From NCBI GenBank assembly GCA_032986305.1, contig GCA_032986305.1_3672.1: DNA of 64,000 nucleotides; one strand, 5' to 3'. The stretch is from a phage. The translations under genes were made by a program, and so were the position numbers. This document shows positions 3,001-30,927 of the stretch, piece by piece. Positions within the stretch are counted from its first letter, which is position 1. Each line of letters starts with the position of its first letter. The notes beneath the pieces were generated by a model. That model was not told the DNA's origin. It worked only from the letters and a program-made list of their open reading frames with translations, and ran no database searches.

Positions 3001-4007
3001 GCAGTCATCGGCTGGTAGTATATGCCGTCCTGATTACCAGTCAAGTTATTGATATTGAAATTTTCCTCAAGGGCTGCACGTTGCTTATAGAAAGCACCGA
3101 TATTGATACGGACTCCAGCAGCATCTCTGGCTCCTGTACCGCCTTGCTCTATAGCAAGAGGTTGCCACGAGGCTGTTTGTTGGTTCCACATACCCCAACG
3201 ACCTGCTGCATCAAGCTGCAAGTACCCTGCCGTGTTTAAATCATCTCCGGCACGGATAACTGTTCTTGTTGGGTTGTTTGCCTCCAGGCGTTTAAATTCA
3301 TCACGAAGTGCTATTCTTTTTGTTGTTGCTACACCGTTGGTTACTGCAATGGTATACATGGCTCCAGAGGTAGCGCCACGGAAAACACCATCAACAGTCG
3401 TAGTATCACGACGAGATACCACACCGTTCAGAAATTTTTCACCAGCTGCTTCAGAAGGGTAGTTAGTAGTTCTTCCCTCTTCAATAACTGCAGGACCAAC
3501 AAAGTTGACAAGGTGAATAACATCACCTACAGTATGCACTGTACCAAAATCTACCCGCTGTGCAAGCGCTTTAGCATCGTTGGCTGTCTGAACCGTAACA
3601 TCCATTACATCCTGTACAGACTGCCCCTCGGCTGTCATGATCATAGATGCGCCAATGGTAGACTCCAGCTCCTCCCTTAAGGACGGGTCTGTATACACCA
3701 TCCATGCAGCGTCGGTGATCCCACCGTCAGAGTATGGTGAAGACAGTGCAGGAACAGTATGTGGAAATTCGCCTTTCCAACGCAGGTAGAGGTCTTCCTC
3801 TTCGAAGTAGGCAAAATCCATTGGGCCGTTTAACTTACCACCTTCCTTAAAGGAGATTACATGAGAAACAGTCCCATCCACATGGACAACATCGCCAATT
3901 TTTACACGACGGGTCAGGTCTGGTTGTTGAACAACCAGGTAATCATCCTCTGTCACTGCGGTAGTGGCAGGAAGAGATTCAATTCTGACAACTTTAATAT
4001 CAGCCAT
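1..4007 (-). CDS. large tail fibre/tailspike protein, 3'-truncated by window edge (at least ~1335 codons in window)
   Basis: ATG at 4007-4005 (reverse) with AGGAGA 6 nt upstream; spot translations in this frame (around 2030-2072 and 1-150) are stop-free and protein-like; absent from ORF track presumably because no stop lies inside the window; distal end of tail module. Confidence 0.5.
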   Translation of the reverse strand, partial: MADIKVVRIESLPATTAVTEDDYLVVQQPDLTRRVKIGDVVHVDGTVSHVISFKEGGKLNGPMDFAYFEEEDLYLRWKGEFPHTVPALSSPYSDGGITDAAWMVYTDPSLREELESTIGASMIMTAEGQSVQDVMDVTVQTANDAKALAQRVDFGTVHTVGDVIHLVNFVGPAVIEEGRTTNYPSEAAGEKFLNGVVSRRDTTTVDGVFRGATSGAMYTIAVTNGVATTKRIALRDEFKRLEANNPTRTVIRAGDDLNTAGYLQLDAAGRWGMWNQQTASWQPLAIEQGGTGARDAAGVRINIGAFYKQRAALEENFNINNLTGNQDGIYYQPMTANATEANGYPAGSGAGHLIVWQNNANGGTGCRQEYYPFSNVDVWYLRTYQANTNQWTAWQPMVRPRNDDTFRSHIGLGKNNSPAFGHLYLAQYSGDVKSASGILHGDKYNTDGVLEHGYRIYSEVRNDNRAWLTIHLHKGAKGSETHRYLGFREDGVLDCPKYMQVGDLNGQMANWGLGEWIRSSGAERGFWGSKKAAKMVIWDGGMDEQGEGTLEWGVYNNRKAKWEPLPQAAGGTGATTLADAQNLFKVPIAAGVKDFLTLPRTAGMEDGKYYPIIVRTDPYYAPATGTDITLVTRSSSGGDPMNCATLQCHYRTGGWTDRGDSFYGVVNFYQNEKALLGMVAPTRGKQEYVAFYAEARAFPVSIYASRNVVEVFTREQDYQVGSVTNNQDGVKFVAPLQSADLNLAVLGDNNTNTRPIVDFKGTSGFYTGGGTQWHYIGTAERYAVMSKMNMPKVELWADGIDYLCYGSPRKALFSNAGFQCASDGTDDLTNGTFTSKCGNGAGLQGQAEFRSTPEAGQVIVRDVVGSAHRFYNFNKDGTFSAPGGFVCHTGADWNNQFGNNNPSKIMAGNVNGPEGSMVVGGLSVAFSGNYAFQMAGRLDQLYTRSIEQGNHRAWNKVIQHRGQGLGTSDLNDYKADREGIYHQEANANATAERHYPPGQQMAGTLIVLRNSANEGTGCVQIYKMYLGGTWERYYNNTGSGMNWSPWKRTSFPESTTAPVMPDLWLPLTSNLKPVLGEGEMVFSRPSTATYFTKRGVMAVAQANQPRFERDGLLIEGQRTNLMLNSEDPSKWGAQSQITVGNTVTNTNGTKGARFTVSNVSGVETTALNLATVPATRGADVTGAEKFCTGSIIARGGKAHQRLRVRFDMYNGSTTVFQGDAYVNLSTLEVKTTGGAAGRIKVKAERWQTAGPAWIRVVATFEAVASDMNIGCQFQIAPPEGSQHAAGDWIDVAIPQFELGSCESSFIPTGSSPVTRAADLCKFPMTDNLAPRPFTI

Positions 4008-27649: not shown

Positions 27650-27726
27650 GTGGTCTCCACGGAGTGATTCGAACACTCGACCTCCTGATCCCAAATCAGG
27701 CGCTCTACCAAGCTGAGCTACGCGGA
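27650..27726 (-). tRNA. tRNA-Pro (anticodon UGG)
   Basis: hand-folded cloverleaf: acceptor CTCCGCG/CGTGGAG, T-loop TTCGAAT, anticodon loop TTTGGGA, CCA encoded. Confidence 0.8.
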
Positions 27727-27737
27727 GTATTTACTAT

Positions 27738-27812
27738 TTGGTGGCCCTGGGTGGAATTGAACCACCGTCTGGCGATTATGAGTCGCTTGCTTGAACCTTC
27801 CAGCTACAGGGC
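27738..27812 (-). tRNA. tRNA-Met (anticodon CAU; elongator or Ile-lysidine type)
   Basis: acceptor GGCCCTG/CAGGGCC, T-loop TTCAATT, anticodon loop CTCATAA, CCA encoded. Confidence 0.75.
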
Positions 27813-27813
27813 C

Positions 27814-27889
27814 TTGGTGCTGATGGCAGGACTTGAACCTGCAACCTATTGATTACAAATCAATTGCACTACCAATTGTGCTACATCAG
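27814..27889 (-). tRNA. tRNA-Thr (anticodon UGU)
   Basis: acceptor GCTGATG/CATCAGC, D-stem GCAC/GTGC, anticodon loop TTTGTAA, T-loop TTCAAGT, CCA encoded. Confidence 0.8.
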
Positions 27890-27894
27890 CAAAA

Positions 27895-27993
27895 AGGTGC
27901 TAGGCGGTGGAATCGAACCACCTATGTATTCAACGACTACCTCGTCTATTTTCAGGATTAAAAATCCTCGCCCTTGCCAAAGGGCTTACCTAG
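27895..27993 (-). tRNA. atypical tRNA-like gene, possibly tRNA-Lys (anticodon UUU) with ~30-nt extra region; may be a pseudo-tRNA
   Basis: perfect 7-bp acceptor pairing GCTAGGT/GCCTAGC, canonical T-arm GGTGG-TTCGATT-CCACC, D-stem GCCC/GGGC, 4-bp anticodon stem with loop TTTTTAA, but ~99 nt long and no CCA. Confidence 0.35.
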
Positions 27994-28091
27994 CTCAGTA
28001 TGTTGACCATGTTGCTAGTCGGCGATGACGACTGTAACATTTGATAATCCGGTTCTGCTTCCGGCTTTCGCTTAATTACAAGGTCAACAAT

Positions 28092-28182
28092 GTGGCGGAG
28101 AGTAATGGAATCGAACCATCATCGAGTCATCCTCAATGGGACGGTTTTCAAGACCGCTTGAGCACCATTGCTCCCTACCCTC
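28092..28182 (-). tRNA. tRNA-Ser (anticodon UGA), long variable arm
   Basis: acceptor GGAGGGT/ACTCTCC, anticodon loop CTTGAAA, extended variable arm, discriminator G, CCA encoded. Confidence 0.7.
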
Positions 28183-28189
28183 CTTTATA

Positions 28190-28218
28190 AATTATACTGA
28201 TAATGACACTGATTTTCG
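28190..28218 (-). promoter_or_regulatory. sigma70-like promoter upstream of tRNA-Ser
   Basis: minus strand TCGAAA-N17-TATAAT, -10 ending 7 nt before the tRNA 5' end. Confidence 0.4.
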
Positions 28219-28296
28219 AGCAGTTAGTGACTAGTATAAACGACGATAAATATCAATGCCATTATCTGTATTATTTACGCATCTAAAAATATAAAT

Positions 28297-28383
28297 TTGG
28301 TGGGGAGTGGTGGAGTCGAACCACCCGAGTCGCAATGACAATAGATTTACAGTCTACACCGCTACCTCTACGGGATAACTCCC
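28297..28383 (-). tRNA. tRNA-Tyr (anticodon GUA)
   Basis: acceptor GGGGAGT/ACTCCCC, anticodon loop CTGTAAA, long variable arm, T-loop TTCGACT, CCA encoded. Confidence 0.75.
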
Positions 28384-28387
28384 CAAT

Positions 28388-28462
28388 TTGGCACCCCGTA
28401 CTGGACTCGAACCAGTGTCAACGGCTTAGAAGGCCGCTGCTTTATCCACTAAGCTAACAGGG
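28388..28462 (-). tRNA. tRNA-Arg (anticodon UCU)
   Basis: anticodon stem-loop GCGGC-CTTCTAA-GCCGT, T-arm ACTGG-TTCGAGT-CCAGT, CCA encoded. Confidence 0.7.
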
Positions 28463-28559
28463 CACTGGGTGGCTTTCTTTTACACCTTAGCCGCCAGAAA
28501 AGGTGGGAGACCATGTTTACAATATTACACTGTTAAGCAAAGTTTGTCAAGAAAATATT

Positions 28560-28898
28560 TTAGCTATTGCTAACAGGCTGTATTTCTGTAGTAAATGGCA
28601 TAAAAGGTGCTGGTTTTTCAGCCTCTTCCACTACCATCTCTTCCTCTTCACCAAACATCTCATCATATTCTTCCTGCATTCGGTCTGCCTTATCAAGAAC
28701 ATACTCTGCAATGCTTTGACGAATATTTTGTTTGGTTTTCGGGTCCAACATCAGCTCTCTTAAAACTTTGTGAGCTTCTGGAACCATCGCTATAAAAGAT
28801 TCCTTCATATCAAGGATGTTCTTCTCTAGCTGAATGGCGTTGGACTCCTCTTTCAGAGGTCTGCCTCTACGGCGACGCTTTTTAGTTGTATCCGCCAT
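28560..28898 (-). CDS. hypothetical small basic/acidic protein with AT-hook-like KRRRRGRP motif
   Basis: start moved to MADTTKK.. with GGAGGA RBS; acidic C-terminal tail. Confidence 0.4.
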   Translation of the reverse strand: MADTTKKRRRRGRPLKEESNAIQLEKNILDMKESFIAMVPEAHKVLRELMLDPKTKQNIRQSIAEYVLDKADRMQEEYDEMFGEEEEMVVEEAEKPAPFMPFTTEIQPVSNS

Positions 28899-28904
28899 GT
28901 TTCC

Positions 28905-29200
28905 TCCATTATCACGTGATAGGTGGATTTTATCATAGCAAATACTGATTGTCAAGTTCGCCGCAGGGTGGTATTCCCTGCGACTTGTCCAGCGTCCTGG
29001 ACCAGCAAGACCCAACAAGTGGGTTACCAGAGGCCTATTACCCGCGCTTCGGCTCGACCTTGTTACAGGTTGGCTGGGGTCACATCGTCATGTGCTGGCT
29101 GCCCCTACCATTTTAAGTGTGGTGCACTATCAAGCCCTCTAAGGGGAACTCAGCCTTCTCCGAACCCTGTTTCAAAGCATCCAGAGATAAAGCCATCAAA
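28905..29200. ncRNA. GC-rich non-coding island, candidate structured RNA (strand and function unknown)
   Basis: GC content visibly above flanking DNA; hairpins CGCAGGG..CCCTGCG and GTCCAG-CGTC-CTGGAC; only an Arg-rich implausible ORF spans it. Confidence 0.25.
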
Positions 29201-29244
29201 TTCATCTTTAAATTGGATATTCATCATGATACACGAAAACAACC

Positions 29245-29487
29245 TCATTGTAAAGCACAAATAAATAAAACATACTTAATTTGTTTGTTATCAGGCTCAG
29301 GGTAGAAGTAGAAGATCTTGCTATCACCGATCTGAACACCACCATCCCAACAACATAGCCCATAACCTGTATTCATACAAGCTAAGTCGTTGGCAAAATC
29401 TATTGCATCATCCAGTGCACGAAATTCACCTTCATCTTCTAAATAATCCTCATTCATGGAACGAAAAACGAGCTTAACCTTAAACAT
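29245..29487 (-). CDS. hypothetical protein (80 aa)
   Basis: ORF only. Confidence 0.3.
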   Translation of the reverse strand: MFKVKLVFRSMNEDYLEDEGEFRALDDAIDFANDLACMNTGYGLCCWDGGVQIGDSKIFYFYPEPDNKQIKYVLFICALQ

Positions 29488-30341: not shown

Positions 30342-30454
30342 AGCTGCCTCCTCTTCAAGTTATAGAAAAACTCACTGTATCACTTTGTAACGAGCTTTTC
30401 TATCAAACTGGTGCGATTGCATTACCTGGTATAGTTTATATAGCTGTGGAGCGA

Positions 30455-30710
30455 TTTAGGGGCCTTCTTGTCAGTTTCCACACATAAACTTCATCCAAGC
30501 TCGCGCGGGAGGCTCTCAACCGACTCCTTACGGCGCTGGCAAGCTTTCGTCGGTGGTCCACATCAGTGCTCGGCCTTTGGCCTGCGCTATCGCTTCGCTC
30601 CCACACATGTTAACAGACCTGCATGTATGCACTTCTGTTATTGTGTGCACCAAGGAGGCCCGGCATCTCGCCCCTCGTAGGCGAGTGCCAATGAAGGGCC
30701 GACACTACCT
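30455..30710. ncRNA. GC-rich non-coding island, candidate structured RNA (strand and function unknown)
   Basis: ~250 bp GC-rich block between AT-rich DNA; hairpins CTCGCC..GGCGAG and GGCC-TTT-GGCC; GGGGCCTTC at one end nearly complementary to GAAGGGCC at the other; only a low-complexity ORF. Confidence 0.25.
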
Positions 30711-30843
30711 ATAGTAAGTAATAATTTTAAAACATGGTACTTAGGATCTAGTATATTCTACATAAGTTAAGTATATGTACTTAGTACCATAAGTACTAGA
30801 TCTTTTATTTTTTATTATTTAGTTATTTTAGTTATATTCTTTA

Positions 30844-30927
30844 TGTGTCCGTATCACGGACAGTTAGTGTCCGTATTACGGACAGATGTGTCCGCGTGAC
30901 GGACAGTAGTGTCCGTATCACGGACAG
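30844..30927. repeat. four tandem ~21-22 bp palindromic repeats GTGTCCGT-N3-5-ACGGACAG (operator or iteron array)
   Basis: copies centred at about 30854, 30876, 30898, 30918; each is a 7-bp inverted repeat; 20-22 bp periodicity; AT-rich palindrome-rich DNA lies next to it at 30720-30840. Confidence 0.6.

Follow-up and report, generated by a model that had tools for sequence, protein, structure and literature searches.

A pseudoknotted RNA motif conserved between rV5-like, T4-like and N4-like phages of Enterobacterales and often located near phage tRNA genes

Bacteriophage T4 encodes RNAs C and D (species 1 and 2, rnaC and rnaD), which are non-coding, co-transcribed with tRNA genes and presumably cut by host RNases, while in phage lambda the pL-nutL-N region has the layout of a promoter, a nascent-RNA element and the N gene. 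RNAs C and D are mentioned in PMC9697503. Theta ribozymes, which resemble the hepatitis delta virus (HDV) ribozyme, are small pseudoknotted RNAs located beside tRNAs in gut phages; they have a catalytic C at the first position of J4/2 and a nested double pseudoknot with obligatory short P3/L3 and P1.1 elements, and they cleave within ~5 nt of the tRNA end (PMC10879173). ROOL and GOLLD are structured RNAs that occur frequently in phages and prophages, in many cases next to tRNA genes (PMC5737381, PMC12286853). Here we describe an RNA motif found in island A, a gap devoid of coding sequences (CDSs) at positions 28900-29244 of a 64,000-nt stretch of phage DNA (contig GCA_032986305.1_3672.1 of the NCBI GenBank assembly GCA_032986305.1, hereafter called the window). 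The source of this region is an rV5-like Escherichia coli myovirus (Vequintavirus). The motif almost certainly represents a genuine conserved family of structured RNAs, which is common to T4-like and N4-like phages as well. Both the family and its fold are apparently undescribed; functionally, it could still belong to a known kind, for instance riboswitches, decoys or processing signals.

A single architecture fits all genuine copies of the motif. From 5' to 3', it comprises the 5' strand of helix P1, the 5' strand of the pseudoknot helix (PK), an optional hairpin P2, the 3' strand of P1, the 5' strand of P3, one nucleotide, P4 (ACCU-GUARNA-AGGU), the trinucleotide CGA, P5 (GCN-N3-4-NGC), GG(U/C)AA followed by 1-2 nucleotides, the 3' strand of P3, 0-11 nucleotides and the 3' strand of PK. 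Because PK crosses P1, the core is an H-type pseudoknot, with a long loop formed by a three-way junction. The positions of all elements in the window are given in Table 1.

Table 1. Features of island A and their positions in the window
Feature	Position	Strand	Basis or remark
Core motif: P1, PK, P2 and three-way junction P3/P4/P5	29024..29105	-	~82 nt
P1, 5' strand GGGG (partner CCCC at 29076-29079)	29102..29105	-	covariation
P1, 3' strand CCCC	29076..29079	-	covariation
PK, 5' strand GCCAG (partner CUGGU at 29026-29030), crosses P1	29095..29099	-	covariation
PK, 3' strand CUGGU	29026..29030	-	covariation
P2 hairpin CACAU-GACG-AUGUG, optional module	29081..29094	-	100% paired wherever present
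P3, 5' strand GCC (partner GGC at 29033-29035), closes the three-way junction	29072..29074	-	covariation
P3, 3' strand GGC	29033..29035	-	covariation
P4 hairpin ACCU-GUAACA-AGGU, hexaloop consensus G-U-A-R-N-A	29057..29070	-	invariant in 43/44 distinct copies (inflated by ascertainment, see text)
J1 CGA, short hairpin P5 GCC-GAAG-CGC, J2 GGGUAAUA	29036..29056	-	near-invariant across lineages (J1 inflated by ascertainment, see text)
Sigma-70-like promoter TTTACA-17-TATCAT, overlaps the end of the upstream ORF	29226..29254	-	consensus scan, 10/12
Vequintavirinae-specific 5' block CCCCUUAGAGGGCUUGAUAGUGCACCACACUUAAAAUGGUA, two small hairpins	29106..29146	-	near-invariant with respect to L037/L053/L055/L058
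3' hairpin ACCCA-CUUGU-UGGGU, Vequintavirinae-specific	29010..29024	-	CCC..GGG hairpin at the same place in L037/L053/L055/L058
3' hairpin GUCCAG-GACG-CUGGAC (second hairpin of the first-pass annotation)	28987..29002	-	direct sequence reading
3' hairpin CGCAGGG-AAUACCA-CCCUGCG (first hairpin of the first-pass annotation)	28962..28982	-	direct sequence reading
Strong sigma-70-like promoter TTGACA-17-TAAAAT (with TG)	28927..28955	-	11/12; 3' limit of the island

Most helices vary in sequence between lineages (loci are designated by L numbers below). P1 is paired in 98% of the alignment cells and all five of its alignment pairs change on both sides across lineages, giving GGGG/CCCC, GGAAC/GUUCC, GGGAA/UUCCC, AAAGG/CCUUU, AAAGC/GCUUU, GAGUG/CACUC and GAAUG/CAUUC. 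The PK partners across lineages are ACCG/CGGU, CACAC/GUGUG, CCGA/UCGG, CCUG/CAGG, GUGAGGG/CCCUUAC, CGGA/UCCG, GCCCU/AGGGC and CCGAA/UUCGG. P2 is fully compensated in relatives (CUACG-GACG-CGUAG, CCUCAU..AUGAGG and CCA-GACG-UGG) and is missing from the N4-like copies and from L059. P3 has two solid pairs (CG in 36 and GC in 7 copies for one; CG in 33, UA in 6, GC in 3 and AU in 1 for the other), and the register of its third pair shifts between lineages. L066 and the second L041 copy have a compensatory variant of P4, GCCU/AGGC. The third pair of P5 is often mismatched; where paired it covaries (GC, CG, AU or GU), and a compensatory P5 variant, GUC/GAC, occurs in the second L041 copy. All lineages have CGA, the GC/GC pairs of P5 and GG(U/C)AA with little or no variation, and ~20 unpaired junction and loop bases are near-invariant; the invariance of P4 and J1 is inflated by ascertainment, as the patterns used to gather homologues required their sequence.

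Two groups harbour segments that might support other pairings. In T4 type A copies (L003/L005), the PK 5' segment CAACCUG exactly repeats the P3/P4 5' sequence CAACCUG, and in N4-like copies of the L024 type, the 3' flank GGUUAG is complementary to CUAACC, which spans the junction and the P4 5' strand. Alternative conformers are therefore possible in both.

The helices were evaluated in three alignments of decreasing independence, namely a MAFFT alignment of T4-like copies, an alignment made by covariance model (CM) and a hand-curated one. The MAFFT alignment was obtained from 23 T4-like copies with no structural input; 86.1% of its cells are paired, compared with 25-47% with slid partners, and its covariation score of 0.181 was reached by none of 500 shuffles (mean 0.055). 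The three central PK pairs are formed in all 23 copies, one as an invariant CG, one as CG (12 copies), AU (7), UA (3) or GC (1), and one as GC (15) or CG (8). The CM-made alignment comprises 34 copies, with 88.1% of cells paired versus 24-50% after sliding, 11 pairs changing on both sides and a covariation score of 0.311 (shuffled mean 0.113, 0/500 shuffles reaching it). The hand-curated alignment of 44 distinct copies, with N padding, yielded 88.0% paired cells versus 24-47%, both-sided changes in 19 of 28 pairs and a score of 0.473 (shuffled mean 0.132, again 0/500), values that are biased by the fitting of this cross-lineage alignment to the structure by hand. An automatic duplex search for helices proved too noisy and was superseded by these alignments. 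G.U outnumbers A.C in the paired columns (44 versus 12), an excess that fits an RNA read from the minus strand and supports the earlier claim of a structured RNA.

The covariance model behind the second alignment, R1, was built from the 23 T4-like copies alone, and the pseudoknot was left out of it. Unaided, R1 placed P1 correctly in that alignment for T4 type A, rV5, N4-like copies, L048, L059 and L066. Its sole match in the window is at 29016-29112(-), with 30.2 bits and an E-value of 1.4e-5, to be taken as rough because the model was quickly calibrated.

A sensitive BLAST search of the gap against 50,697 phage records matched 119 rV5-like and ~460 T4-like genomes. The T4-like matches cover only 44 nt (window 29034-29077) at 85-90% identity, and in T4 and Bp7 they fall, on the coding strand, within the ~100-160 nt that separate vs.8 from denV or from another gene upstream. 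The window and T4 share identical single-stranded stretches and have stems of different sequence: GGGG...CCCC and CACAU-GACG-AUGUG in the former correspond to GGGAA...UUCCC and CCUCAU...AUGAGG in the latter. Using the T4 spacer as a query, we retrieved 1,085 phage records across many Straboviridae genera, including Tequatro-, Mosig-, Dhaka-, Karam-, Kanagawa-, Jiaoda- and Roskildevirus. Exact matches to the core pattern ACCTGTANNAAGGTCGAGC were obtained at 49 IMG/VR loci, and a related pattern matched 39 metagenome contigs, 35 of which were confirmed by R1; this T4-only model recognised every lineage and rejected false-positive pattern matches. The comparison with related phages that the first-pass annotation had proposed as a check was decisive, and the core is common to T4-like and N4-like phages too.

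The copies fall into several groups, i.e. the T4-likes, whose 5' half is of one of two kinds; rV5 proper together with more distant ~140-kb contigs that share the gene order of island A (L037, L053, L055, L058); the N4-like podoviruses (Klebsiella phage Pylas and relatives, Schitoviridae) and Shigella phage SF1-1; and the singletons L038, L048, L059, L113 and L066. The Salmonella N4-like phage FSL SP-076 is devoid of the motif. Some T4-likes carry two copies, as in L015 (255-378 and 794-901) and L041 (5075-5174 and 5185-5309); the Jiaodavirus copies flank a small ORF, and the tandem, diverged second copy of L041 is a source of compensatory variants in P4 and P5. When 185,579 bacterial and archaeal species, each represented by one genome, were scanned with a pattern, 12 matches emerged, of which a single one is genuine, L066 on a 1.06-Mb Pseudomonas serbica 'plasmid' (megaplasmid). 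A blastn search of 5,426 complete E. coli genomes with the core gave zero matches. We rejected host mimicry or a prophage origin on the basis of this empty search and of the one in 12 species-wide matches that fits the fold.

The orientation of the motif is always that of the locally transcribed strand. In T4-likes, it is always directly 5' of a vs.8 homologue, 60-80 nt before the start codon, and the same-strand tRNA cluster is ~6 kb upstream of it. Outside this group, a same-strand tRNA array usually contains the motif or is no more than ~1 kb away. The array starts 470-560 nt downstream of the motif in Vequintavirinae, and at N4-like loci the tRNAs are located 185-340 nt downstream in most cases or 0.7-1.1 kb upstream. 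The motif comes after tRNAs in L024, L083 and L113, with a tRNA ending 12 nt before it in the last of these, and between two tRNAs in the SF1-1 type (L019, L092). No tRNA is present in the DNA stretch examined for L038, L059 and L066. All-versus-all BLASTP comparisons of the ORFs within 5 kb on either side identified no protein family common to the lineages, and homologues of Vs.8 (P-loop ATPase-like, phrog_1488) are found only in T4-likes.

In the N4-like L043, the minimum-energy fold has a ~20-bp stem that encloses exactly the motif, and neighbouring modules are closed by the same repeat. This locus (1930-2310), as well as L024, L029, L075 and L110, harbours a chain of RNA modules upstream of tRNA-Arg/Met, the long closing stems of which are built from one repeat, CAACAGGUAAGAGCA ... 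UGCUCUU(A/U)(U/C)CGUUGUG. One of these modules bears a tRNA-like T arm, CCGGUUCGACUCCGG. The UGCUCUU of the repeat may resemble the boxA of rrn operons. Further afield, L053 has a group I intron at 3115-3418 (RF00028, 81 bits), ~3 kb downstream of the motif.

Regarding vs.8 itself, some records call it a 'RegB domain endoribonuclease', and Pfam and PHROGs give weak similarity to P-loop ATPases only. In several deposited T4-like genomes, such as L003 (903-1553, T4 clone OL964735), the vs.8 CDS is extended over the motif or small ORFs are called there. The AUG 60-80 nt after the motif is the true vs.8 start, because the in-frame extension contains a stop in close relatives such as L005.

In the window, island A is flanked by the open reading frames (ORFs) 29245-29487(-) and 28560-28898(-), and all nearby genes are carried by the minus strand. 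ARAGORN identified seven tRNAs at 27651-28463(-). The order of transcription is ORF 29245-29487(-), island A, ORF 28560-28898(-) and the tRNA array, with the 3' end of the core (29024) 561 nt upstream of 28463, where the first same-strand tRNA of the array starts. A first-pass annotation, based on the sequence alone, had described positions 28905-29200 as a GC-rich, structured, non-coding block between small minus-strand genes just beyond the tRNA array, and much of that description holds. The GC content is 0.51 over 28905-29200 and 0.57 over 28960-29150, against a window value of 0.434 and 0.37-0.42 in the flanking ORFs, no CDS lies between the minus-strand ORFs, and the island is indeed beyond the array, i.e. 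upstream of it in the direction of transcription. The two hairpins it named, CGCAGGG-N7-CCCTGCG and GTCCAG-CGTC-CTGGAC, are present, and the functional stretch, roughly 28962-29146, is adequately covered by its coordinates. It was right that the island is a folded RNA, but the hairpins it cited are peripheral, and the conserved core is the pseudoknot upstream of them. Shuffled sequences have folding energies in the same range as the whole island (z -1.40, minus strand; z -0.99, plus strand), and these z-scores are not significant; thus, hairpins and GC content alone do not make island A remarkable, and its special status comes from the comparative evidence. The 1.1 kb around the island are 99-100% identical by BLAST to many deposited Vequintavirus phages, in most of which the island is unannotated.

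No reading frame on either strand is open across the homologues, in agreement with the non-coding status proposed earlier, for which a conserved ORF had been named as counter-evidence. A protein-coding gene was rejected since, relative to the core, all three antisense frames end after 12-30 codons in several lineages and the sense frames are broken. No frame spans the motif in L020, the length of P2 does not vary in multiples of three, and a 113-codon plus-strand open frame in the window shrinks to 12-27 codons in bona fide homologues. Some depositors nevertheless annotate small ORFs over island A.

The Rfam/Infernal scan suggested with the first-pass annotation was run and was negative for the island. 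With the 4227 models of Rfam 15 at the gathering threshold, only tRNAs were found in the whole window. At E<=10, the island alone gave five matches to snoRNA models (10-16.5 bits, E 5.8-8.8) in its AT-rich 5' part (29124-29248), and the T4 denV-vs.8 spacer gave nothing. Scans of ten homologous loci returned only tRNAs and one group I intron elsewhere, and neither ARAGORN nor Rfam has a tRNA match in the island that would indicate a tRNA or tRNA-like gene. Searches of the literature by T4 gene names, sequence strings and topic found no description of the motif, subscription-only papers being outside the search, and the denV-vs.8 spacer is unmentioned in a T4 transcriptome/proteome study.

Comparison with the systems introduced above shows partial likenesses only. 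Like the motif, T4 RNAs C and D are phage-encoded, non-coding and co-located with phage tRNA genes. However, R1 matches once per T4-like locus, at vs.8, and has no match in the tRNA clusters of L081, L093 and L097, homology with RNAs C and D being judged here by R1 matches in the tRNA clusters rather than by alignment of their sequences. In addition, the T4 motif is ~6 kb from the tRNA cluster, and its fold combines a pseudoknot with a three-way junction. ROOL and GOLLD are ~500-800 nt long and belong to other bacterial phyla, whereas the core is ~80-125 nt here, and both Rfam models are silent. The resemblance of the rV5-type island to the lambda nut, HK022 put and rrn boxA elements is by position only, with a promoter followed by a structured RNA, a gene for an Arg-rich protein (N-terminus MADTTKKRRRRGRP) and untranslated RNA genes, an order that parallels pL-nutL-N in lambda. 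No boxA/boxB consensus was identified in the island, the likeness being judged without an antitermination model; moreover, the T4-like and N4-like copies have no Arg-rich gene and some copies are downstream of tRNAs.

Theta ribozymes are likewise small, pseudoknotted and tRNA-associated, and the strand order of the motif resembles their nested double pseudoknot. We nevertheless rejected membership in the HDV-like/theta group, as the catalytic C of J4/2 is missing, the corresponding junction may shrink to 0 nt and some copies do without the P3 equivalent. The J4/2 equivalent, between the P3 3' strand and the PK 3' strand, is CU in the window, UAC or U in relatives, AAAUA/UUACAU in T4-likes and 0 nt in N4-like copies. 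P1 and PK cross in the manner of the ribozyme P1 and P2, but the P3-equivalent hairpin, which is P2 here, has 3-6 bp and loops of 3-16 nt where present. The distance between motif and tRNA is 561 nt in the window and 185-1150 nt at other loci, with L113 alone (12 nt) being close. Furthermore, the P4-equivalent domain is the most conserved part of the motif and the most variable one in theta ribozymes, the hosts are Enterobacterales rather than Bacteroidota/Bacillota, and the Rfam HDV models are silent on the motif. We also rejected a hammerhead, by reasoning only: the junction strand lengths 7/3/1 agree, but the cyclic order is reversed, the sequences differ and Rfam is silent. Other presumed resemblances, on which we do not rely, are those of GCGGUAAU to the 16S 530 loop, GUGCGGUAAG to the S-domain of RNase P RNA, CCUGUAAU to the Alu U-turn of the signal recognition particle and GAAUACCACCC to the 23S L1 stalk, as well as a UAA/GAN junction motif. 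Finally, riboswitches such as SAM-II/V, preQ1-II/III, c-di-GMP-II and ZTP are also ~80-120-nt RNAs with an H-type pseudoknot, covarying helices and conserved junction nucleotides. The motif has the aptamer-like fold, covarying helices and invariant junction nucleotides of riboswitches in general, but a consistent position in the 5' untranslated region (UTR) of related genes is found only in T4-likes, with vs.8. It differs from them in matching no Rfam model, in having no consistent downstream function and in lacking a recognisable expression platform outside T4-likes.

What the motif does can be read in several ways. The reading that we prefer, with a probability of about 0.4, is that of a discrete, stable RNA acting in trans. 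Host RNA polymerase would transcribe the island early from sigma-70-type promoters, within a region of untranslated RNA genes, and host RNases would trim the transcript until a discrete small RNA that resists nucleases is left, with RNase III cleaving the ~20-bp closing stem of the N4-like copies and RNase E or RNase P being at work in the tRNA arrays. The invariant loop and junction nucleotides would provide a surface or pocket for a partner common to the Enterobacterales hosts, be it a host protein or RNA, possibly tRNA-related. Such a host partner would explain why unrelated phages keep ~20 unpaired bases without a shared neighbour gene. We favour action in trans because the genetic contexts vary, including positions inside and after tRNA arrays, no neighbour gene is shared, the N4-like closing stem looks like an excision signal and the rV5 relatives have their own predicted promoter upstream. 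Several points weigh against it. The link with vs.8 is kept even at 34% Vs.8 identity and looks like that of a cis-acting 5'-UTR element. The promoters of the island are consensus matches only, and with no terminator after it, nucleolytic trimming would have to generate the discrete RNA. In Vequintavirinae a second promoter lies between the motif and the next gene, and some N4-like motifs follow tRNAs. The hand fitting of the cross-lineage alignment and the ascertainment of P4 and J1 must also be counted here. No single cis model fits all contexts, but the trans model was chosen partly by elimination.

The main rival, to which we give a smaller though real share of credence, is a cis-acting leader, i.e. 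a riboswitch, a protein-binding operator or a processive antitermination or anti-Rho RNA through which the nascent transcript controls transcription or translation of vs.8 in T4-likes, and of the gene for the Arg-rich protein and the untranslated tRNA array in rV5-likes. In T4-likes the motif, directly 5' of vs.8, is followed by two hairpins specific to this group and by the ribosome-binding site; in Vequintavirinae and at most N4-like loci it is close to a promoter, with same-strand tRNAs downstream. Rho naturally targets long untranslated transcripts such as those of tRNAs. Highly conserved unpaired bases are typical of aptamers, and the possible alternative pairings noted above (the CAACCUG repeat of T4 type A, GGUUAG/CUAACC of N4-like copies) are in line with such a leader as well. 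However, different lineages have unrelated genes downstream, the tRNAs precede the motif in L024, L083 and L113, a strong predicted promoter separates it from the next gene in rV5-likes, the window has neither a terminator nor a helix sequestering the Shine-Dalgarno sequence, the long stem enclosing the N4-like motif points to excision, and no Rfam riboswitch or leader model matches. A new small self-cleaving ribozyme, or other catalytic RNA, that processes polycistronic or tRNA-containing phage precursors, in a role analogous to that of the theta ribozymes, appears improbable. Its compact pseudoknotted fold, in which the helices vary and ~20 nucleotides of junctions and loops are invariant, the strand order P1-PK-P2-P1'-[P3 domain]-PK', superficially similar to the HDV-like nested double pseudoknot, and the association with tRNA arrays, as in L113 where the motif starts 12 nt after a tRNA, would all suit a ribozyme, and phages are known to place ribozymes beside tRNAs (PMC10879173). 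Nevertheless, no known ribozyme model matches, the HDV-defining catalytic C has no counterpart, the P3-equivalent hairpin is absent from N4-like copies, most loci are hundreds of nucleotides away from the nearest tRNA end and no candidate cleavage site can be named. That island A is nothing special, whether a GC-rich spacer whose hairpins arose by chance or resemble terminators, a site used at the DNA level (origin, packaging or recombination) or a small protein gene, is very hard to credit. The unexceptional folding energy (z -1.4 and -1.0), the small ORFs of depositors and the 113-codon plus-strand frame would agree with this idea, but cross-family conservation, compensatory changes in five helices and strand-specific G.U pairs do not, nor do the collapse of that frame in homologues with no frame conserved, the lack of U-tract terminators and an orientation that always follows local transcription.

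The periphery of the island is lineage-specific. The promoter at 29226-29254 is a candidate start for the island transcript, with a transcription start site predicted near 29219. In L037/L053/L055/L058, a predicted promoter, TTGACA-17-TATACT (11/12, with TG), is located ~10 nt before the conserved 5' block. The two hairpins of this block are CCCY-N3-RGGG and UAGUG-CACCA-CACUA according to RNAalifold, and the block is missing from the T4-like and N4-like copies; we rejected the idea that it is a repeated phage promoter, as it has no repeat elsewhere in the window. On the 3' side, the relatives have GCUGG-GGACGGA-CCAGC at the equivalent of 28987-29002, with a different stem sequence and a similar loop, and the hairpin at 28962-28982 is found only in rV5 proper, being deleted in L037/L053/L055/L058. 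These two hairpins are followed by GCGAAC (28962-28982) and AAGUCG (28987-29002), with no U-tract, so the former is not an intrinsic terminator, and no terminator-like site was detected on either strand between 28900 and 29250. The promoter at 28927-28955, predicted to serve the downstream ORF and the tRNA array, reads TTGACA-17-TAAACT in relatives and is annotated as a predicted promoter in phage Gotham. The product of the downstream ORF 28560-28898(-) (phrog_3330) starts with an Arg-rich segment, MADTTKKRRRRGRP in the window and MVDKKEKTKKRRRRGR in relatives, and continues with an acidic tail.

We made a few other observations in the vicinity. Island B (30400-30720), the other GC-rich block, from which the first-pass annotation had distinguished island A, is indeed dissimilar, as BLAST gives only 7-8-nt words in common and the island A covariance model matches the window once. 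Conservation of island B is restricted to rV5-like phages (119 records, at least 89% identity), with no cross-family match; it has no convincing Rfam match, the weak rli43 hit (22.8 bits for a gathering score of 100) lying mostly upstream at 30623-30919. Just upstream of an AT-rich stretch and of island B, positions 30845-30925 contain, in minus-strand reading, four tandem palindromes TGTCCGT-NNN-ACGGACA, ~22 nt apart with the loops GAT/CAC/AAT/GAT, which look like an operator or iteron array. In the tRNA array, ARAGORN called a 99-nt 'tRNA-???' with the 4-base anticodon atcc at 27896-27994(-), annotated as tRNA-Lys-TTT in phage Gotham, and a 91-nt tRNA-Ser at 28093-28183(-). Both are below the Rfam tRNA gathering score and may be intron-containing or otherwise aberrant. 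Lastly, 18 'Campylobacter phage' records (MG065635-MG065682, host Campylobacter jejuni) are 97.7-100% identical to E. coli rV5-like phages in this region, which suggests that the entries are mislabelled or contaminated.

In several deposited genomes, these findings correct the annotation of spurious ORFs across the motif or of vs.8 extended into it. Its function is directly testable, given the small size of the RNA, the definition of its helices by covariation and the ease of genetics in T4. It is rather unlikely, in our estimation, that the motif constitutes a new functional RNA class, either a previously unknown self-cleaving or other catalytic fold or an RNA acting directly on a core host machine, deployed with tRNA operons by enterobacterial phages; the machine could be RNA polymerase/Rho, RNase P/E, the ribosome or a tRNA-targeting defence nuclease. 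If so, the denV-vs.8 spacer of T4 would have held an unrecognised functional RNA all along. If the family itself holds up, it adds an orphan RNA class that is present in the best-studied phage as well as in hundreds of therapeutic-candidate coliphages and Klebsiella phages. Its occurrence in three unrelated virus families with only the host clade in common points to a host target or repeated horizontal capture, and it is tied to the phage tRNA clusters, whose biology, including counter-defence, codon supply and processing, is under active study.

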